Below, piece after piece: positions 5,662 through 28,838 of a DNA stretch of 35,175 bases. Each line of letters starts with the position of its first letter. The stretch's first letter is position 1. The translations under genes and the position numbers were made by a program. The stretch lies in the IMG/VR virus record IMGVR_UViG_3300038312_000113, positions 1 to 35,175 of that record, one strand, 5' to 3'. This DNA is from a virus. Taxonomy: Duplodnaviria > Caudoviricetes. Under the pieces are notes generated by a model that ran no database searches, had not been told where the DNA came from, and was given only the letters and a program-made list of their open reading frames with translations.

Positions 5662-6084
5662 CTAAAATCCTGACACATCTTTGATTTTGTAGTTACCAAA
5701 CTCTTCTAAGGTTATCGCTTTAAATTTCCAGGTCCCGTTAGGCTCGAGGTTGTTGGCGTTGGCAAGAGTACTACCAACCTGGGCGCCGGAATCATCATAT
5801 AAGTTGATTTCGACCTGGACATAGGTATATTGTTTGCTTGTATTGTTTTTTACAACACCAACAATGTTCGTACTATAGGTTTCCTTCTGTACGCTATGTT
5901 CCACTACCTCCAGGTCAGGAGCTTTAGCTTTGTCTGATACTGTCGGGGTAGACGCTCCGTCCTTTGTTCCGGCTCCCTGGTCCTTGTTATTGCTACCGGA
6001 TGCTGCCCAGGCGATCAGCACTACGATCGCCAATCCCCAGAACCACCAGCGCTTGTAGATTGGTTTTTTACCTCCTTCACTCAT
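5662..6084 (-). CDS. membrane-anchored FxLYD-domain protein (moron; possible superinfection-exclusion or surface protein)
   Basis: KKPIYKRWWFW TM anchor, low-complexity linker, G.VKN....YVQVEINLYDDSGAQVG...NLEP..TWKF; GGAGGT RBS before ATG 6084. Confidence 0.75.
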   Translation of the reverse strand: MSEGGKKPIYKRWWFWGLAIVVLIAWAASGSNNKDQGAGTKDGASTPTVSDKAKAPDLEVVEHSVQKETYSTNIVGVVKNNTSKQYTYVQVEINLYDDSGAQVGSTLANANNLEPNGTWKFKAITLEEFGNYKIKDVSGF

Positions 6085-6099
6085 AAAAAATACCTCCTT

Positions 6100-6250
6100 T
6101 GACGTAAATACAAGTACAGCAGAGTATATGGAATAAATTCTTAAATTTCGACCTTTTATGACGTAAATAAACGGTATTTGACTGTTGTCTATGCCTGTGT
6201 TTATGACGTAAAATAACGACATAAACATAAATTGACGTAATTAAACGTCA
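6100..6250. promoter_or_regulatory. array of four TGACGT-N6-ACGTCA-like operators in the divergent intergenic region
   Basis: Copies start at 6100, 6159, 6204 and 6233; right arms AAGTAC, ACGGTA, ACGACA and ACGTCA. Confidence 0.7.
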
Positions 6251-15614: not shown

Positions 15615-16981
15615 TGAAGTTCAGTCCACACCCTTATCAGGAATACGCAACAAGCAGAATATTGGATCAGGAAGCTGTAGGGTTATTTTTGGATATGGGC
15701 TTAGGTTGAGGTAAGACCGTTTCAACACTGACTGCCGTAGACCAGTTGCTGTATAACTACTTTGACGTGCAAAAGGTTTTAGTAATAGCACCTTTAAGAG
15801 TAGCGCAAAAAACCTGGACCGATGAAGTACGGAAGTGGGATCACTTGAAGCACCTGAGAATCAGTAAGGTCCTAGGAACTGAGAAACAACGCCTGGCAGC
15901 CCTCCAGGCTAAAGCTGATATCTGGGTAATTAACAGGGAAAACGTGGAGTGGTTGGTTGACCTGTACGGGAAGGATTGGCCGTTTGATATGGTGGTCATC
16001 GATGAGCTGTCCAGTTTCAAGTCCAGTAAGGCTAAACGGTTCAGAGCCCTACGCAAGGTGCGGCCGTGTATAAAACGCATTGTGGGCCTAACCGGTACGC
16101 CGGCACCAAACGGATTGATTGATCTCTGGCCACAAGTTTATCTCCTGGACCAGGGCGAGCGCTTGGGTAAAACAGTTACCGGGTACCGGAGCCGGTACTT
16201 TGACCCGGGAAAGCGGAACCGGACTGTAATATTTAGCTGGGACCCAAAACCGGGAGCCGAGGAAGCAATCTACAGCAAGCTGGAGGATTTATGCGTAAGT
16301 ATGTCATCCGAAGACTGGCTGCAGATGCCGGAGAGGATTGATCGAGAGGTTATGGTCCAGATCCCGGAGGCGGCCAGGGCAAAATATGACCAGCTGGAGA
16401 GGAATTTACTTTTGCCTTTTGCCGGCGGCGATATAACGGCAGATACCATGGCGATTTTATCTAACAAATTAATGCAGATGGCCAACGGTGCGGTATATGA
16501 CGAAAATGGATCCACCCGGGAAATCCACCAGGCTAAACTCGAGGCCCTGGATGATATTCTGGAAGCTGCAAACGGCCAGCCGGTGCTGGTGTTTTACAAT
16601 TATCAGCACGACCGAGATAGGATACTGAAGCATATACCTACAGCCCGGGTACTGGACACAGAGGATGACATTGAGAAGTGGAACCAGAGAAAAATACCAG
16701 TTATGTTGGCGCATCCGGCCAGCGCCGGCCATGGCCTGAACCTCCAGGCTGGAGGAAACATAATAGTTTGGTTTGGATTGACCTGGTCCCTAGAGTTGTA
16801 TCTTCAGGCTATTGCCAGGCTATATCGTCAAGGCCAGGATAAAAGCGTAATTGTTCACCATTTAATAGCAGAGGGAACTATTGATGAAGCCGTGATGAAG
16901 GCCTTGGCTGGTAGGTATGTCAGCCAGAAGGCTTTACTGGAGGCAGTGAGGGCCAGGATTGAAAAGTACCAGGCTGCGTAA
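15614..16981 (+). CDS. SNF2-family helicase with an in-frame TGA at 15707-15709 inside Walker A
   Basis: TAATG coupling with GGAGGTG RBS; MKFSPHPYQ...FLDMGLG*GKTV continues in frame into ORF 15746-16981 (IDELS, LTGTP, GHGLNLQ, QAIARLYRQGQ). Confidence 0.85.
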
Positions 16982-16999
16982 AGAAAGGAGGTATAGGCA

Positions 17000-17197
17000 A
17001 TGAAAACCTGTTATATAAACGTATCACCTGAACAAGTGAAGGACTCATTGCAAATAGTAAAAGATAAAAATCCGGATAGTGTTTTAGTACTTGCGCCAGT
17101 ATGTGGAATAGAGACCGGGCCGTGTCAGTATTGGAGAGAGAACTGTAGATTGGATACGGCGGCAACAGTGCCGGACAGGCTGAAATTAGCGAAGTAG
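17000..17197 (+). CDS. hypothetical Cys-containing protein
   Basis: AAGGAGGT RBS; 65 aa. Confidence 0.55.
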   Translation: MKTCYINVSPEQVKDSLQIVKDKNPDSVLVLAPVCGIETGPCQYWRENCRLDTAATVPDRLKLAK

Positions 17198-17208
17198 GAG
17201 GGGATTAA

Positions 17209-17637
17209 ATGGCTAAGATACCACGCGAGGTCTGGCGGTTCTGCGTCGACCAAATAAAATACTACCCGCTAACCGAAGTTGCCTACGCCAATGCTAAGGC
17301 CGATATCCAGGCGGTGTATGAAGAGAGCGGGATGGGGAGTCTACCGGATCCGTCCGGGGTGCATGATGTGCATCTGGGTCAAGGGCCTCAGGAGGGTAGA
17401 TACATAGCCCGGGAAAAGGCCCTGAATAACCCATACTACAGATATTTAACGAGGTCAGTGGGGATTATGGAAGCAGCCAAGATGGGACAGGATCAGGCGG
17501 TACTGGAAGCGATTTGGTCTGAGGGATGGCGGGATAACACTATGATAGCTTTGCGAGCCAACGTGAGTGCCCGGCAGGTAGCCAGAGCCAAACATGAGTT
17601 AGTTCGGGGGGTGGCAGAGGGATGGGGGTTGTGGTGA
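17209..17637 (+). CDS. putative late transcription activator (ArpU/RinA-like)
   Basis: C-terminal HTH-like IALRANVSARQVARAK; position at the end of the replication module. Confidence 0.55.
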   Translation: MAKIPREVWRFCVDQIKYYPLTEVAYANAKADIQAVYEESGMGSLPDPSGVHDVHLGQGPQEGRYIAREKALNNPYYRYLTRSVGIMEAAKMGQDQAVLEAIWSEGWRDNTMIALRANVSARQVARAKHELVRGVAEGWGLW

Positions 17638-17885
17638 TGAGTAAAAATAAAACTGATGTTAAAAGGGTTTATGCGGCAATCATTAGACAAGCCCAGGATG
17701 ATTGGAAACAAGCCTGCAAGAATGACAATCGAAGCATGAAAAATGAGATTAGACGCTTCTTTAGGTCTGATTGGGGTATGCACATCTTGGATATACTTGA
17801 GATCGACATTAAAATTATTAATGATAAGTACCAAATTTTAAAAAATGAGCCTATTTTGGCACTGGACAGCATAGGCTTGACATGA
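17637..17885 (+). CDS. hypothetical protein
   Basis: TGATG coupling; AIIRQA.DDW...EIRRFFRSDW pattern common in Bacillota phages. Confidence 0.6.
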   Translation: MSKNKTDVKRVYAAIIRQAQDDWKQACKNDNRSMKNEIRRFFRSDWGMHILDILEIDIKIINDKYQILKNEPILALDSIGLT

Positions 17886-17891
17886 TATACT
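17863..17891 (+). promoter_or_regulatory. candidate late promoter
   Basis: TGGACA-17 nt-TATACT with extended -10 TG, upstream of the packaging genes. Confidence 0.55.
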
Positions 17892-17913
17892 GTACACGTA
17901 GAAGTATGCAGAG

Positions 17914-17940
17914 AAGCCTCCGGGGTGCCGGGGGCTTTTT
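17914..17940 (+). terminator. terminator-like hairpin just downstream of the late promoter
   Basis: AAGCCTCCGG-ggtg-CCGGGGGCTT followed by TTT. Confidence 0.6.
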
Positions 17941-17943
17941 GAT

Positions 17944-18117
17944 AATAGAGATGAAAATGCAGCAAAGAATATTAAAAATGAAGGAATGAGAATATTAGGA
18001 TTAGCATCTTAAATTAAATATAGTACGGTAGGGACTATCGGATTTTAAGCCTGTGGAGATGGAGGTTACGAAGTCTTTGAAGCAGGAATCTCGTCACTTT
18101 AGTGATGAGAGGTTCAA
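17944..18117 (+). mobile_element. IS200/IS605-family remnant: last 22 codons of tnpB plus omega-RNA scaffold and right end
   Basis: NRDENAAKNIKNEGMRILGLAS* (RuvC-III-like, 17944-18012); GAAT then hairpin TCTCGTCACT-tt-AGTGATGAGA (18089-18110); terminal TTCAA 18113-18117; internal TTGAA 18077-18081; TTGAT immediately to the left. Confidence 0.8.
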
Positions 18118-18196
18118 TTATGGACACTGTGGGGATATACATCTCGTATTTTGCAGGGGTGGGAAGCTGGCATGATTACCTAGGGAGGTGATAAGA

Positions 18197-18694
18197 GTGG
18201 CTAATTTAACTTCAAAACAGCAACAATTTGTAAAGGAATACCTGGTGGACTTAAACGCCACTCAGGCCGCGATTAGAGCTGGGTACAGTTCTAAGACAGC
18301 CAATAGAATAGCTACTGAAAACTTGTCGAAACCTGTTCTCCAGGCGGCTATTCAGGAGGCCATGCGGGAAAGGTCGGAGCGCACGCAGATCACCCAGGAC
18401 ATGGTGCTCCAAGAGTTGGCCAAGATCGGCTTTGCTGACCTCAAATCTGTTGTTTCCTGGACCAAAGACGGGAAGATCACCGTAAAACCCAGCGATGAGG
18501 TTGATGGTACTATCGTGTCTGAAATATCCGAGACCGAGATCAATTACGGTGATTACATTAAACGAACCAAAAAGGTCAAGCTGCACGATAAGCTCCGGGC
18601 TTTAGAGATGGTGGGCCGACATCTGGGGATGTTCAGGGATAATATCAATATAAATGCGGAAGTCGGTGTCCAAATCATCGATGATATAAAATGA
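18197..18694 (+). CDS. terS: terminase small subunit
   Basis: LTSKQQQFVKEYLVDLNATQAAIRAGYS...ENL.KP; KLRALEMVGRHLGMF. Confidence 0.92.
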   Translation: MANLTSKQQQFVKEYLVDLNATQAAIRAGYSSKTANRIATENLSKPVLQAAIQEAMRERSERTQITQDMVLQELAKIGFADLKSVVSWTKDGKITVKPSDEVDGTIVSEISETEINYGDYIKRTKKVKLHDKLRALEMVGRHLGMFRDNININAEVGVQIIDDIK

Positions 18695-19950
18695 TTCAAG
18701 TCAAGATGTCTGATAAGGTGCTGCCAGCCTTTCATGGCTTCTGGAGGGACTGCGATAAGTATTTATACAAGGTCCTTAAGGGTGGCCGGAACAGCGCAAA
18801 GTCAACCACTGTCAGCGAGAGGATCATCTTGGACCTGATGAAATCCCCGGTGAACGCCATAGCTCTCCGGAAAGTGGGCAGCACCCTTGAAACCAGTGTG
18901 TTTGAGCAGTTGAAATGGGCTATAGATTATCTGGAGGTCTCGCAGTACTGGAAGGTCAGAAAAAGCCCGCTGAAGTTGATATATCTTCCTCGGGGCAATG
19001 AAATACTCTTCCGTGGCGCTGATGATGCCATGAAAATTAAGTCAATCAAGACCAGTAAATTCCCTATCACCCATTTATGGATAGAGGAGCTTTCCGAGTT
19101 CAAGACCGAGGAAGAGGTTGATACTATCGTCAACTCAATCCTGAGATCTGAACTACCGGCAGGGTTGCAGTACAGTATATTCTTTAGCTATAACCCACCT
19201 AAGCGAAAGCAGAACTGGGTTAATAAGAAATATAATACTCAGTTCCTAGCCTCTAACACCTTGGTTCATCACAGCACCTTCCTGGATAACCCATATGTTT
19301 CTCAGGCATTCCGGGAAGAGGCGGCAGAAGTAAAAGCCAAGAGTGAACATAAATACCGGTGGATCTATCTGGGTGAGGCCATAGGTGGTGGAGTGGTTCC
19401 GTTCGATAATCTGGTATTCCGGCCTATTGCAGATGATGAGATCAGATCCTTCGACAACATAAGACAAGGCATAGACTGGGGTTATGCAGCCGATCCGTTC
19501 GCGTTTGTCAGATTACATTACGACAAGCGAAGGCGCCGGCTGTTTTTCATTGATGAGGTCTATGGTGTTAAGCTCAGCAACCGGGAAGCAGCCGCGCAGA
19601 TAAAAATCAAGGGGCTGAATGATTGCCGGGTTACTGCTGATTCAGCAGAGCCCAAAAGTATAGCCGAGTTTAAGACCTACGGTATTAAGTGTTATGGAGC
19701 CCAGAAAGGGCCAGGCAGCGTTGAGTATGGAGAAAAATGGCTCGACGACCTAGAGGAGATAGTTATTGACTATAAGCGCACTCCAAACGTCGCCCGGGAG
19801 TTTGAGAATATAGACTACAAGGTGGACAAGGACGGTAATATCAGGAGTGAGCTTGAGGATCAGGACAACCATACTATTGATGCTGCCAGGTATGCATGTG
19901 AGGATGACATGAAAGAGCGCAAGCTCAAGGCCGCTAAGAGCCTGTATTAA
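18691..19950 (+). CDS. terL: terminase large subunit, PBSX/SPP1-type
   Basis: GGRNSAKS, WIEE, SYNPP, GIDWGY..DP, ADSAEPKSI, DNHTIDAARYA. Confidence 0.93.
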   Translation: MIQVKMSDKVLPAFHGFWRDCDKYLYKVLKGGRNSAKSTTVSERIILDLMKSPVNAIALRKVGSTLETSVFEQLKWAIDYLEVSQYWKVRKSPLKLIYLPRGNEILFRGADDAMKIKSIKTSKFPITHLWIEELSEFKTEEEVDTIVNSILRSELPAGLQYSIFFSYNPPKRKQNWVNKKYNTQFLASNTLVHHSTFLDNPYVSQAFREEAAEVKAKSEHKYRWIYLGEAIGGGVVPFDNLVFRPIADDEIRSFDNIRQGIDWGYAADPFAFVRLHYDKRRRRLFFIDEVYGVKLSNREAAAQIKIKGLNDCRVTADSAEPKSIAEFKTYGIKCYGAQKGPGSVEYGEKWLDDLEEIVIDYKRTPNVAREFENIDYKVDKDGNIRSELEDQDNHTIDAARYACEDDMKERKLKAAKSLY

Positions 19951-21346: not shown

Positions 21347-21542
21347 ATTTGACCGTTCTGTTGAATGGGAAACAGATTTGTGTAAGCTATGTTCTAAAAA
21401 AGATACGTGTCATCACAATATTGAACCATGCCTCCCCCTCGAAATGCTGCGCCAGTTATGTTTGAAAAGTCCGGGAGAACAGGTTGCCGACCTTCGGAAT
21501 GTAGCTGAACACTTTGATTACCCTGGTGGTGATGCCTCGTGA
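21321..21542 (+). CDS. small Cys-rich protein between portal and minor head genes
   Basis: C..C.....C......C pattern; GGAGG upstream; GTGA coupling to the next gene; exact start uncertain. Confidence 0.5.
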   Translation: MAVVAKILKFDRSVEWETDLCKLCSKKDTCHHNIEPCLPLEMLRQLCLKSPGEQVADLRNVAEHFDYPGGDAS

Positions 21543-23311
21543 GCCTGGAAGATAAGTTCAAGCAAGGTGAACAAGCCGCCGAAAAACTGGAGCAGCAGGC
21601 CGAGAAAGAAATCATCAAAGCCTACCGGGAAAGCCTGAAAGAGATCCGGGCAGAGTTGGCCCTGGCATATGAGAAATACGCCATAGCCGGAGCACTTACC
21701 ATGGCCGAAATGATGAAATACGGGCGGTTAGTGAAGTTAGAGGCGGCAATAGCTAAAGAGGTTAGCAAACTAAACGGGACAGGGGCCCGGACTACCAAAA
21801 AGACCATTAAAAAGGTATTCCAGGAAAGCTACTACCGTTCAGCTTGGGCGCTTGAAACCGGGGCCGAGGTATCGCTTAGCTTTACCTTACTGAAACCCCA
21901 GGCAGTGGAGGCAGCAATATTAAACCCTTACGACCTCATAACCTGGCCGGAAAGAATCAAAGATAATGCCAGGCTTTTGGTTAGGCAAATACGGGAGGAA
22001 ATAAGCCGGGGCATTGTCCAGGGTTATTCATACGACAAAACAGCCCGAGCAGTGAAAGAACGACTTGACATCGGGGCCAGTAAGGCTATAAGGATAGTCC
22101 AGACCGAGACCCACCGGGCACAAAGCCAGGGAACCCAAACCGCCTTTGAAGAGGCAGCGGAAAAGGGCCTGGTTTTCAAGAGGGTTTGGATAAGTACATT
22201 AGACGGCAGGACCAGAGACCGACACCGGGCGCTTGACGGCCAGAAGGCAGAAGCTGACCAGCCCTTTAAAATGGACGGCATGACCGCCATGTACCCGGGC
22301 GGGTTCGGTATTGCATCTATGGACATCAATTGTTTCCCTGGTGATATGTGCGTTTATTCCGAATCCCCGATTGAAGGAGCGACAAAACGGTGGTATGAGG
22401 GCGAGCTAATTGAAATTAAAACTACGACTGGTGTAATCGTCGCCGGAACCCCTAATCACCCGATATTGACCGAGCAAGGATGGCTGCCTCTTAATCTCGT
22501 GGCAAAAGGATGCAATGTAGTCTGCTGCGCCATCGCTGAGCCAATTACCGCGAGTAACCCATACCCATACAACAGACCAACCGCATTCGGTAAGGCGTTT
22601 AGTCTTACGGATATTGTTGGCACGGTGTCTAAGCAGAGGGCTCGCGGGGTCAATCCACAGTTCCACGGCGACGGGTTCAACAGCGATGTCGATATTATAT
22701 TTCTCAAAAGCAAGCTGGACAACAGGGTTAAGCCCGCGCTCCCGAAGCATCTCAGCCAAGACCAACTCTCCCTTGCCGAGCTTAGAGAGGGTGACTTGCT
22801 TGGTGACAGCACTTTTGGACATTTCCCTAGCAGTTCTCTTTCTCCCTCTGACGGCACTATGAGCGGCGGCAGCGAGAGCGCTGCGTTCTTCGGGGGGGGT
22901 GTTCGCCATTCTGACAAACATAGCCTCGCTACGATTGCGGCAACTGACGTTATGTTCCTGCAAGATGCGGCGAATAACAGGTCGGCTAACATTGAGGGAT
23001 TGTGCAAGAGCCTTTTCGGAAGTTCCAGCGAGATAAGTTTCGACAACGTAATTGCTGTCAATGTGCGTAAATTTTCTGGTCATGTTTATAACCTCCAAAC
23101 AAGTAATAGCGTATATATTACTAATGCCATTGTACCGCAAAAAGTCCAAAAATTCAAGGGTGCTGTGGCACACAACTGCCGGTGTACGGTCAGGGCAGAA
23201 ATTGAAGGTATGTCCCCTACCCTACGCCGGGCCCGGGATGAAAAAACCGGAAAGAATGTTGTGATATCGAATATCACCTACCAAGAATGGTATAATAATA
23301 CAGTAAAGTAG
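21539..23311 (+). CDS. SPP1 gp7/MuF-like minor head protein containing an intein
   Basis: A.RIVQTETHRA, W.STLDGRTR.RH..LDGQ; the DINCRC motif is split by the intein; spliced product about 308 aa. Confidence 0.9.
   Translation: MSLEDKFKQGEQAAEKLEQQAEKEIIKAYRESLKEIRAELALAYEKYAIAGALTMAEMMKYGRLVKLEAAIAKEVSKLNGTGARTTKKTIKKVFQESYYRSAWALETGAEVSLSFTLLKPQAVEAAILNPYDLITWPERIKDNARLLVRQIREEISRGIVQGYSYDKTARAVKERLDIGASKAIRIVQTETHRAQSQGTQTAFEEAAEKGLVFKRVWISTLDGRTRDRHRALDGQKAEADQPFKMDGMTAMYPGGFGIASMDINCFPGDMCVYSESPIEGATKRWYEGELIEIKTTTGVIVAGTPNHPILTEQGWLPLNLVAKGCNVVCCAIAEPITASNPYPYNRPTAFGKAFSLTDIVGTVSKQRARGVNPQFHGDGFNSDVDIIFLKSKLDNRVKPALPKHLSQDQLSLAELREGDLLGDSTFGHFPSSSLSPSDGTMSGGSESAAFFGGGVRHSDKHSLATIAATDVMFLQDAANNRSANIEGLCKSLFGSSSEISFDNVIAVNVRKFSGHVYNLQTSNSVYITNAIVPQKVQKFKGAVAHNCRCTVRAEIEGMSPTLRRARDEKTGKNVVISNITYQEWYNNTVK
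22406..23083 (-). CDS. antisense-encoded HTH plus Vsr/DUF559-like endonuclease inside the intein
   Basis: GGAGG RBS 8 nt before ATG 23083; HTH SEKALAQSLNVSRPVIRRIL; nuclease-like GELVLAEMLRERGL..Q......IDIA....AVE...K...L...GWSVVWVW. Confidence 0.8.
   Translation of the reverse strand: MTRKFTHIDSNYVVETYLAGTSEKALAQSLNVSRPVIRRILQEHNVSCRNRSEAMFVRMANTPPEERSALAAAAHSAVRGRKRTAREMSKSAVTKQVTLSKLGKGELVLAEMLRERGLNPVVQLAFEKYNIDIAVEPVAVELWIDPASPLLRHRANNIRKTKRLTECGWSVVWVWVTRGNWLSDGAADYIASFCHEIKRQPSLLGQYRVIRGSGDDYTSRSFNFN
23129..23157 (-). promoter_or_regulatory. sigma-A-type antisense promoter for the intein endonuclease
   Basis: Minus strand TTGAAT (23157-23152), 17 nt, TACAAT (23134-23129). Confidence 0.7.
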
Positions 23312-27386: not shown

Positions 27387-28838
27387 TGGCAGAGGTAAAA
27401 TGGTATGGCGATAAGGTAATAAAGAGCATGGAAGATGCCATCAGTAAGGCACTGGAAGCCTCTGCCCTTGTTGTAGAGGGAGCCGCTAAGAACCTAGCCC
27501 CGGTTGATACTGGCAACCTGCGGAACTCTATCACCCACGAGGTGGAAAAGAAAGAGGCCCGGGTGGGCACCAATGTGGAATATGCGGTAGACGTATGCCG
27601 CCCTCAATGGCGACATTGAGGTAAAAATCGGGCAATATCGGTGGAACCTAAACCTTTTAGGAACAAATGTTATAAACATATATAGAGTGTGGTACAATAT
27701 CAATGGGAGGTGTACCACATGAGAGAAGATTTAACAGGCCGTAAGTATGGAAGGTTAACTGTTGTCGAATTAGACAAAACCCGAAGTAAGCGTAAAAGTT
27801 ATTGGGTATGCCAGTGTGAATGTGGTAATACAAAAACAGTGCGAAGTGATAGCATTAAAGCCGGGGCTATTCAATCCTGCGGATGCTTGAAGGATGAACA
27901 AGACCGCATTAATTTAACTAAACACCATTCCCATAAGATGAGCAAAACAAGGCTATACCATACTTGGCAAGGAATAAAGAAACGTTGTAATAGCCTAGAT
28001 GATGCCAGTTATCCAAGATATGGCGGCAGGGGCATAACTGTTTGTAAAGAATGGGAGTCTAGTTTTGAAAGCTTTATGGAATGGGCTCTTAATAACGGTT
28101 ATTCAGATACCCTAACTATTGACCGGATAGACAACAACGGCAACTATGAACCTTCTAATTGTAGGTGGACAGGGCCTAAAGCACAAGCTAGAAATAGACG
28201 TAGTAATATCAAGGTTAGATACAACGGTAAATCTATAACCTTAATGGAACTGTCCGAAATTACAGGGCTAAATTACGGTATTTTAAGCGCGAGATATGAC
28301 CGAGGAGACAGGGGGAAAAGATTGTTGCGAGCTCCGGGAAAAGATAGGGACACCCAGATAGGAACAAAAAACTGCAACAATAAGATTGATGAAGCCACGG
28401 CAAGTGAAATTAAGGAGCGCCTCAGTAAAGGAGAAGTGGCAACCATTATTGCCCGTGACCTTGGGATATCGAAGTATATAGTTTATGACATTAAGCGAGG
28501 CAGAACATGGAATTGGCTCTAAATGGCATGGCAATACCGAGATAATTCAAGGAGTTAAAGGACCTTGAACATCGTAACGCATAGGCGGTGATCCTGCATT
28601 GCAGAATATAATCCGCCCACGAGTGCCCGACAACCCATGAGGTTGAAAATGTATGCTGACCTCATAGGAAACTATGAGAAGTAAGGGATAAAAAGCCCTT
28701 ACGGTAACAAAATGATACGTCGAACTCGGAACCGTCAAAATGGCCGCCCAGCCCTATCTTAACCCGGCCCTGGAGAAAAATAAGGGCAACATCAAAAAGA
28801 TCTTCGCCGATGCCCTGAAGGAGGCGGGGAAAGATTGA
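27383..28838 (+). CDS. HK97 gp10-like tail component split by a group I intron; exons 27383-27588 and 28715-28838 (109 aa)
   Basis: Joined exons read AKNLAPVDTGNLRNSI...VGTNVEYAVYVELGTVKMAAQPYLNPAL, the family motif. Confidence 0.88.
27688..27719 (+). promoter_or_regulatory. intron-internal extended -10 promoter overlapped by a hairpin enclosing the RBS
   Basis: TGTG-G-TACAAT 27688-27698; inverted repeat TGTGGTACA 27688-27696 / TGTACCACA 27711-27719 around GGGAGG. Confidence 0.65.
27719..28522 (+). CDS. intron-encoded HNH-type homing endonuclease with C-terminal HTH domains
   Basis: DLTG.KYGRLTV, W.C.C.CG, SCGC, YGGRGI.VC.EW, TIDRIDNNGNYEPSNCRW; C-terminal IARDLGISKYIVYDIKRGRTW. Confidence 0.88.
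   Translation: MREDLTGRKYGRLTVVELDKTRSKRKSYWVCQCECGNTKTVRSDSIKAGAIQSCGCLKDEQDRINLTKHHSHKMSKTRLYHTWQGIKKRCNSLDDASYPRYGGRGITVCKEWESSFESFMEWALNNGYSDTLTIDRIDNNGNYEPSNCRWTGPKAQARNRRSNIKVRYNGKSITLMELSEITGLNYGILSARYDRGDRGKRLLRAPGKDRDTQIGTKNCNNKIDEATASEIKERLSKGEVATIIARDLGISKYIVYDIKRGRTWNWL

Follow-up and report, generated by a model that had tools for sequence, protein, structure and literature searches.

A 174-bp right end of an IS605-type element, its omegaRNA scaffold intact and probably left by deletion, upstream of the terminase genes of a phage

The 174-bp segment at 17944-18117 of the virus record analysed here (the window, which is the whole record, 35,175 bases long and carrying terminal repeats) is the 3' end of an IS605-type element. 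Its most probable origin, to which we assign a likelihood of roughly two in three, is the deletion of a full copy once inserted at a TTGAT of the phage, which would have left an intact right end that is likely useless to the phage. Replication genes lie upstream of the insert, while terS, terL, portal and head genes lie downstream, and the closest named TerL is that of Brevibacillus phages (66%). No integrase was found among the 46 ORFs scanned in the window, out of 133 of at least 60 aa. The same genome carries a minor head protein with an intein-like stretch (21539-23311; Pfam Intein_splicing E 2e-5, below the cut-off), an HNH endonuclease among the head-tail genes (27689-28522) and, on the minus strand, an ORF weakly resembling superinfection-exclusion proteins (5662-6228).

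Anatomy of the insert and its parent family

The insert has a GC content of 0.35 versus 0.48 for the genome, and its parent is a Firmicutes-type AT-rich element. It stands directly 3' of the cognate TTGAT, between two flanks that are unlike each other and show no duplication; likeness to every family copy ends at 18117, and the flank TTATGG begins at 18118 (Table 1). Direct reading of the coordinates and sequence bears out the earlier note, which had described an orphan omegaRNA module made of the last 22 TnpB codons and the right end, placed after TTGAT and with a guide that would start at 18118. The tnpB remnant ends with the TAA at 18010-18012, no in-frame start was found upstream of its 22 codons, and TTGAA is read at 18077-18081. 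The claim that tnpA, the remainder of tnpB and the left end are absent from the window was likewise upheld, as tblastn with the parent TnpA and TnpB matched the TnpB tail only and blastn with the left end of the full copy L085 gave no real match. The insert is present as a single copy in the record.

Searching 16500-19500 against RNA-family models, as the earlier note had proposed, brought nothing significant from Rfam. An IStron (10.1101/2023.11.20.567912) was rejected, there being no group I intron core in the same Rfam search and only 174 bp of insert. Similarly, a TnpB alignment reaching back to 17914 was set aside as a chance match, this stretch being a phage hairpin that occurs without the insert in the relatives X9, X3 and L100. 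In a search of a phage collection the insert was unmatched and the region was matched through terS only.

Table 1. Features of the insert and of its surroundings in the window.
Feature	Position	Strand	Evidence
Sigma-70-like promoter TGGACA-17-TATACT, extended -10	17863..17891	+	10/12 matches
GC-rich 13-pair hairpin and U-tract, terminator-like	17911..17940	+	-22.9 kcal/mol, z -4.5
TTGAT, target site/TAM of the parent IS	17939..17943	+	same pentamer before the left end in L085 and L098
Last 22 tnpB codons (NRDENAAKNI...) and stop, RuvC-III aspartate motif	17944..18012	+	without start codon
OmegaRNA stem 1	18026..18040	+	two-sided changes across the family
OmegaRNA stem 2 and 5' pseudoknot strand TGAA (18078-18081)	18050..18086	+	
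Right end: guide GAAT (18086-18089), subterminal hairpin (18090-18109), TTCAA (18113-18117)	18086..18117	+	
Predicted 16-nt guide, phage flank	18118..18133	+	deduced from Karvelis 2021 (PMC8612924)
Terminase small subunit, first late gene downstream of the insert	18188..18694	+	Pfam Terminase_2 E 2e-45

The exact right-end motif matched 3 viral and 13 metagenome loci and had no match in the genome contig collection. Over the 174 bp, L084 is 93% identical and L085 and L098 are 91% identical, and all three continue into tnpB. The TnpA and the TnpB of L085 both score above the IS200/IS605 cut-offs of NCBIfam; this TnpB passes the IS200_TnpB cut-off and possesses the three RuvC acidic motifs. TTGAT directly precedes the left end at both independent full-copy sites (L085 and L098, with L183 left out as a repeat of the L085 site), in agreement with the earlier assignment of TTGAT as the cognate target, and the left-end guide CACA of these copies fits it. 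Furthermore, the four nucleotides at the base of the left-end hairpin vary with the target among full elements (CACA-TTGAT, CACT-TTGAA and CAAG-TTGAC), following the pairing rule of IS608 and ISDra2. The principle of this pairing has been described (PMC3201880). At the level of sequence, TTGAT is thus confirmed as the target of the insert's IS family and, since the TnpA target is reported to correspond to the TnpB TAM (Karvelis 2021, PMC8612924), it is also the predicted TAM.

The motif GG(G/A)CT, a pattern picked after viewing the data, stands just before TTGAT at both full-copy sites and in the window, where only 2 of the 103 TTGAT sites have it. It can base-pair with the opening bases of the left end of the element, which may hint that a left-end-bearing copy chose the window site. 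Pre-TAM flanks able to pair with these opening bases were also seen at L085:740-762, L098:240-262, L205 and window 17930-17943, and natural extended target choice is a possible explanation; the extended pairing engineered in IS608 is described as involving another part of the left end (PMC5934647). In a Brevibacillus record (L083:2250-2534), another 5'-truncated tnpB is followed by an identical 34-base right end.

The scaffold, the left break and other right-end copies

Over 12 family members the omegaRNA structure (two 5' stems, the right-end hairpin and a 4-bp pseudoknot) pairs in 95.4% of cells, beyond what chance would give: slid versions pair in 27-43%, and none of 500 shuffles equals the 11 of 27 scaffold pairs that change on both sides. 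These controls are biased in favour of the structure, which had in part been derived from the sequences themselves. The pseudoknot pairs are near-invariant and hence carry no covariation support. All scaffold pairs form in the window copy. The scaffold length falls within the 79-466 nt reported for processed omegaRNAs (PMC10278001).

Record 19 of run X9 shows 0 differences over 17942-18112 (171 bases), and the 30 letters seen upstream are tnpB zinc-finger codons ending in TTCAT. Since this contig is identical over 171 bases and runs into tnpB, the stump is young, and because it is young the intact scaffold shows no selection. The decayed IS scar that the earlier note had offered as the null explanation therefore holds as a scar and not as a decayed one, given the identity to a parent-type sequence.

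The 13 metagenome loci comprise the same phage once and four copies ending inside the element at a contig end, leaving 8 that are informative: one full copy, three with both ends and without genes (PATE-like), and four (three distinct) that are right-end-only. In the three distinct right-end-only copies the element is cut at 107, 127 and 243 bases, in each case without TTGAT at the junction. The scaffold core was found at 19 viral loci; judged by eye, two of them keep the right end only, and five (four distinct) lack genes but have a left end. A class-wide search, in which at most two candidates were scored per genome and 2 of 401 genomes went unscored, gave at least 8 of 399. In related families, stumps found in genomes by covariance model are cut inside the scaffold (L224, L242) or reduced to the bare hairpin (L212). 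Right-end stumps, in samples that are biased in all three collections to copies keeping the searched motif, are thus common and ragged. Since their lengths vary to the point of breaks inside the scaffold, retention of the whole scaffold is one point within a range of deletions. PATE-like copies of the wider family occur at L086, L089, L095 and L186.

Whether right-end stumps as a rule abut their TAM was also examined, and this is not upheld, as it fails for the first copy of L091 and for L092, L093 and L224; abutment is true for the window and possible for L197 and for the second copy of L091 (TTTAT, whose standing as the cognate motif is uncertain). Past the end of a gene, at L091:1927-2185, two different right-end-only omegaRNA modules flank a terminator in tandem.

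TTCAT immediately precedes the break position in X9, L084 and L092. This pentamer is one mismatch from TTGAT and one from TTCAA, and pentamers of this kind occupy 5 of 1785 positions in L085, 4 of 1785 in L098 and 3 of 574 in L084 (0.2-0.5%). At the break, the exact target site is thus fused to a TTCAT from inside the element, a junction compatible with a mis-cut by the transposase. The AT microhomology at the join is also exact, and 12% of IS positions are preceded by AT. In our preferred reading, a full, left-end-bearing copy would first have inserted at the phage TTGAT, and a deletion would then have removed the whole stretch from the left end up to a TTCAT late in tnpB. This deletion may have arisen by TnpA mis-excision, with a left cut exactly at TTGAT and a right cut that fell on the internal TTCAT and not on the terminal TTCAA, or by replication slippage at the shared TT-AT microhomology, two routes that we hold to be about equally probable. 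Meers 2023 (10.1101/2023.03.14.532601) reports that TnpA can switch to another exact motif, one lying downstream of the right end; mis-excision at a mismatched upstream motif would be an extension of that finding and is not precedented by it. In a literature search that was thin on subscription journals, no paper on left-end-less, TAM-abutted stumps of TnpA mis-excision was found. Two gene-less copies with a left end, L202 and L235, resume in tnpB about 15 bases or less from the codon at which the window copy breaks, and this region of tnpB is possibly a deletion hot spot.

Deprived of its left end, the stump would be unable to excise or to move by itself. The same join would also be produced if TnpA had made a false left cut at TTCAT, one mismatch from the TAM, and the resulting 174-nt circle had entered TTGAT by means of a left-end guide provided in trans, so that the insert would be a mobile mini-element. 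Left boundaries that vary among copies, which the earlier note had named as speaking against its own reading, are observed among the metagenome, viral and genome loci, and that of the window is unique among the 13 metagenome and the 3 + 19 viral matches. In addition, excision by GstTnpA is reported to need the left end and a cognate TAM (Meers 2023, 10.1101/2023.03.14.532601). A parallel that speaks for a mini-element comes from genome G407, in which three right-end-only copies of another family have one common left start; we nonetheless regard this origin as decidedly improbable for the window insert. The G407 copies (L231, L233 and L238) are omegaRNA/right-end copies with a small hairpin at their common start and differing flanks, without tnpB and with no canonical left end found by the pattern used, and possibly constitute a mobile mini-unit.

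Insert-free relatives, transcription and guide targets

An insert-free phage contig from X9 is 99% alike over 17538-17940, rejoins the window at 18143 and diverges again past 18164; ahead of the rejoining point it carries 53 letters, against the 28 expected of a clean empty site. The X6 relative differs before 18156. The X3 contig follows the phage to 17943 and stops after four unaligned letters at the contig end, which is compatible with an empty site without demonstrating it. In L100 the leader hairpin is present, with neither insert nor guide. Taken together, these sequences indicate that the insertion site is variable and that insert-free relatives exist, while the clean join of TTGAT to TTATGG that the earlier note had expected of them was not seen.

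The predicted target, TTGAT plus guide, was not seen in X9, X6, X3 or L100 either. Neither the module nor either of its flanks was found in 142 loci of related phages, which are distant relatives with proteins at most 76% identical. The best match to TTGAT plus guide reaches 11/16 among 6145 sites in the loci examined, and no self-target in the window exceeds 10/16. A search of viral_contigs gave no close phage relative (TerS best 57% full length, TerL best 76%); there, the 87-aa ORF was unmatched and the 142-aa ORF had one match, at 75%.

In X1, probably the run from which the record comes, the phage is assembled as a single circular contig that includes the insert. No empty joint occurs among the X1 contigs listed, contigs being prone to drop rare variants, and two other contigs among the X1 pieces listed share only the last 30 bases of the right end, with no source of a cognate TnpB seen among these pieces. 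That the insert could be a repeat-induced chimera of phage and IS made during assembly is suggested by the X1 contig and L094, both of which open or close inside the element. This is barely credible, since an X1 contig of depth 185 covers both junctions (17500-18050 and 18088-18300), a 93-base piece of depth 169 bridges them, and the left junction falls exactly on the family TAM.

Some features sit uneasily with a simple stump: the neat join, the retention of the whole scaffold, its placing on the transcribed strand behind a strong promoter-like site, and the lack of an empty joint among the X1 contigs listed. In a rival reading, the 174 bp would home without any protein of their own: an omegaRNA made by read-through would load a TnpB provided in trans, which would cut insert-free sister phages at TTGAT plus guide during co-infection, and repair would copy the insert, with the gain belonging to the element and not to the phage. 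The intact scaffold and the abutting cognate TAM agree with it, as do the 30-base right ends in the two other X1 contigs and the departure of the X3 contig from the phage at 17943. Support by analogy comes from gene-less elements proposed to be served in trans (Meers 2023, 10.1101/2023.03.14.532601) and from standalone omegaRNAs reported to work in trans (PMC10691335). On the other hand, no clean empty site was seen, the X9 relative differing across 17941-18142 and the X6 relative before 18156, and no other near-identical tnpB tail (93%) is found among the X1 pieces listed. Moreover, a hairpin stands upstream in the leader, and in the predicted fold the guide pairs back with the last bases of the scaffold and would compete with the pseudoknot. 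We consider such homing unlikely on this balance. The more daring combination, in which a one-step TnpA mis-excision makes a TAM-abutted, left-end-less and unexcisable cassette that, transcribed by read-through from the late promoter, homes into insert-free sister phages with a borrowed TnpB, seems to us quite unlikely.

The site at 17863-17891 is likely the phage late promoter and belongs to the phage DNA, being covered by the insert-free relatives X9 and X3. The statement of the earlier note that the insert lies downstream of a promoter is correct as to this promoter-like site; it had missed the intervening phage hairpin with its U-tract. This hairpin, which the terminator scan did not list, stands between promoter and insert with its U-tract overlapped by TTGAT, and is native to the phage, a similar one occurring without the insert in L100. 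If terS is read from this promoter, the stump would be transcribed within the leader only by read-through of the hairpin, late in infection. Under the deletion reading, the resulting RNA could be loaded by the TnpB of a co-resident element as a by-product.

A phage benefit, as proposed in the earlier note, would have the module kept for cutting competitors or for titrating host TnpB. The position behind the promoter-like site and the intact scaffold are compatible with co-option, and phage guide RNAs acting on host Cas9 have been reported (10.64898/2026.06.01.729453). Against it, the module is conserved in none of the relatives examined, its identity to the parent-type sequence leaves no time for, or sign of, tuning, and the guide is the insertion flank only, with no target matched. 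IS605 TnpB is not known to have an established anti-phage role that a decoy could counter. With ragged stumps elsewhere, no predicted target in the nearest insert-free phage, 0 of 142 related loci carrying the module and a hairpin in the leader, we find the weapon or decoy very unlikely.

Known systems and significance

The likeness to ISDra2-type IS605 elements (Karvelis 2021, PMC8612924) lies in the TTGAT target/TAM, the RNA running from the tnpB 3' end through the right end and the guide taken from the flank; the window keeps the last 174 bp only, without left end, tnpA or usable tnpB, and its parent is not ISDra2. PATE-like elements as described by Meers 2023 (10.1101/2023.03.14.532601) similarly encode no protein, retain scaffold and right end and depend on activity provided in trans, but they keep both ends and are excisable by TnpA, whereas the window element has no left end and therefore falls outside the PATEs. 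With the standalone omegaRNAs of Altae-Tran 2023 (PMC10691335) the insert shares its anatomy, namely a complete scaffold with conserved pairing and a flank guide, with no effector or transposase at the locus. Those omegaRNAs are described as evidently mobilised and working in trans, while the window element occurs as one copy in the record, with no other copy having the same left boundary among the loci examined. Gene-less omegaRNA carriers served in trans are thus, on these accounts of PATE-like elements and standalone omegaRNAs, already published.

Guide-type RNAs in phage genomes are also represented by TldR phages (10.1101/2025.07.22.666180) and viral sgRNAs (10.64898/2026.06.01.729453). 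According to these reports, such systems either carry a defined effector or are directed at one, and their target is fixed, whereas the phage studied here has an insertion-flank guide only; no phage-encoded TnpB-like gene was found in the window and no conservation in the 142 related loci, so that the locus is not of the TldR type.

Most likely, then, the insert is just another right-end stump from a common IS family and as such matters little. It is a clean and fresh case in which parent, TAM and break point are all known, and the locus makes it possible to test whether mis-cutting by TnpA at internal look-alike motifs gives rise to stumps, and whether phage omegaRNAs that lack a left end are ever loaded in trans. 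If the boldest reading were true, it would be a homing element of 174 bases with neither a protein nor a means of excision.
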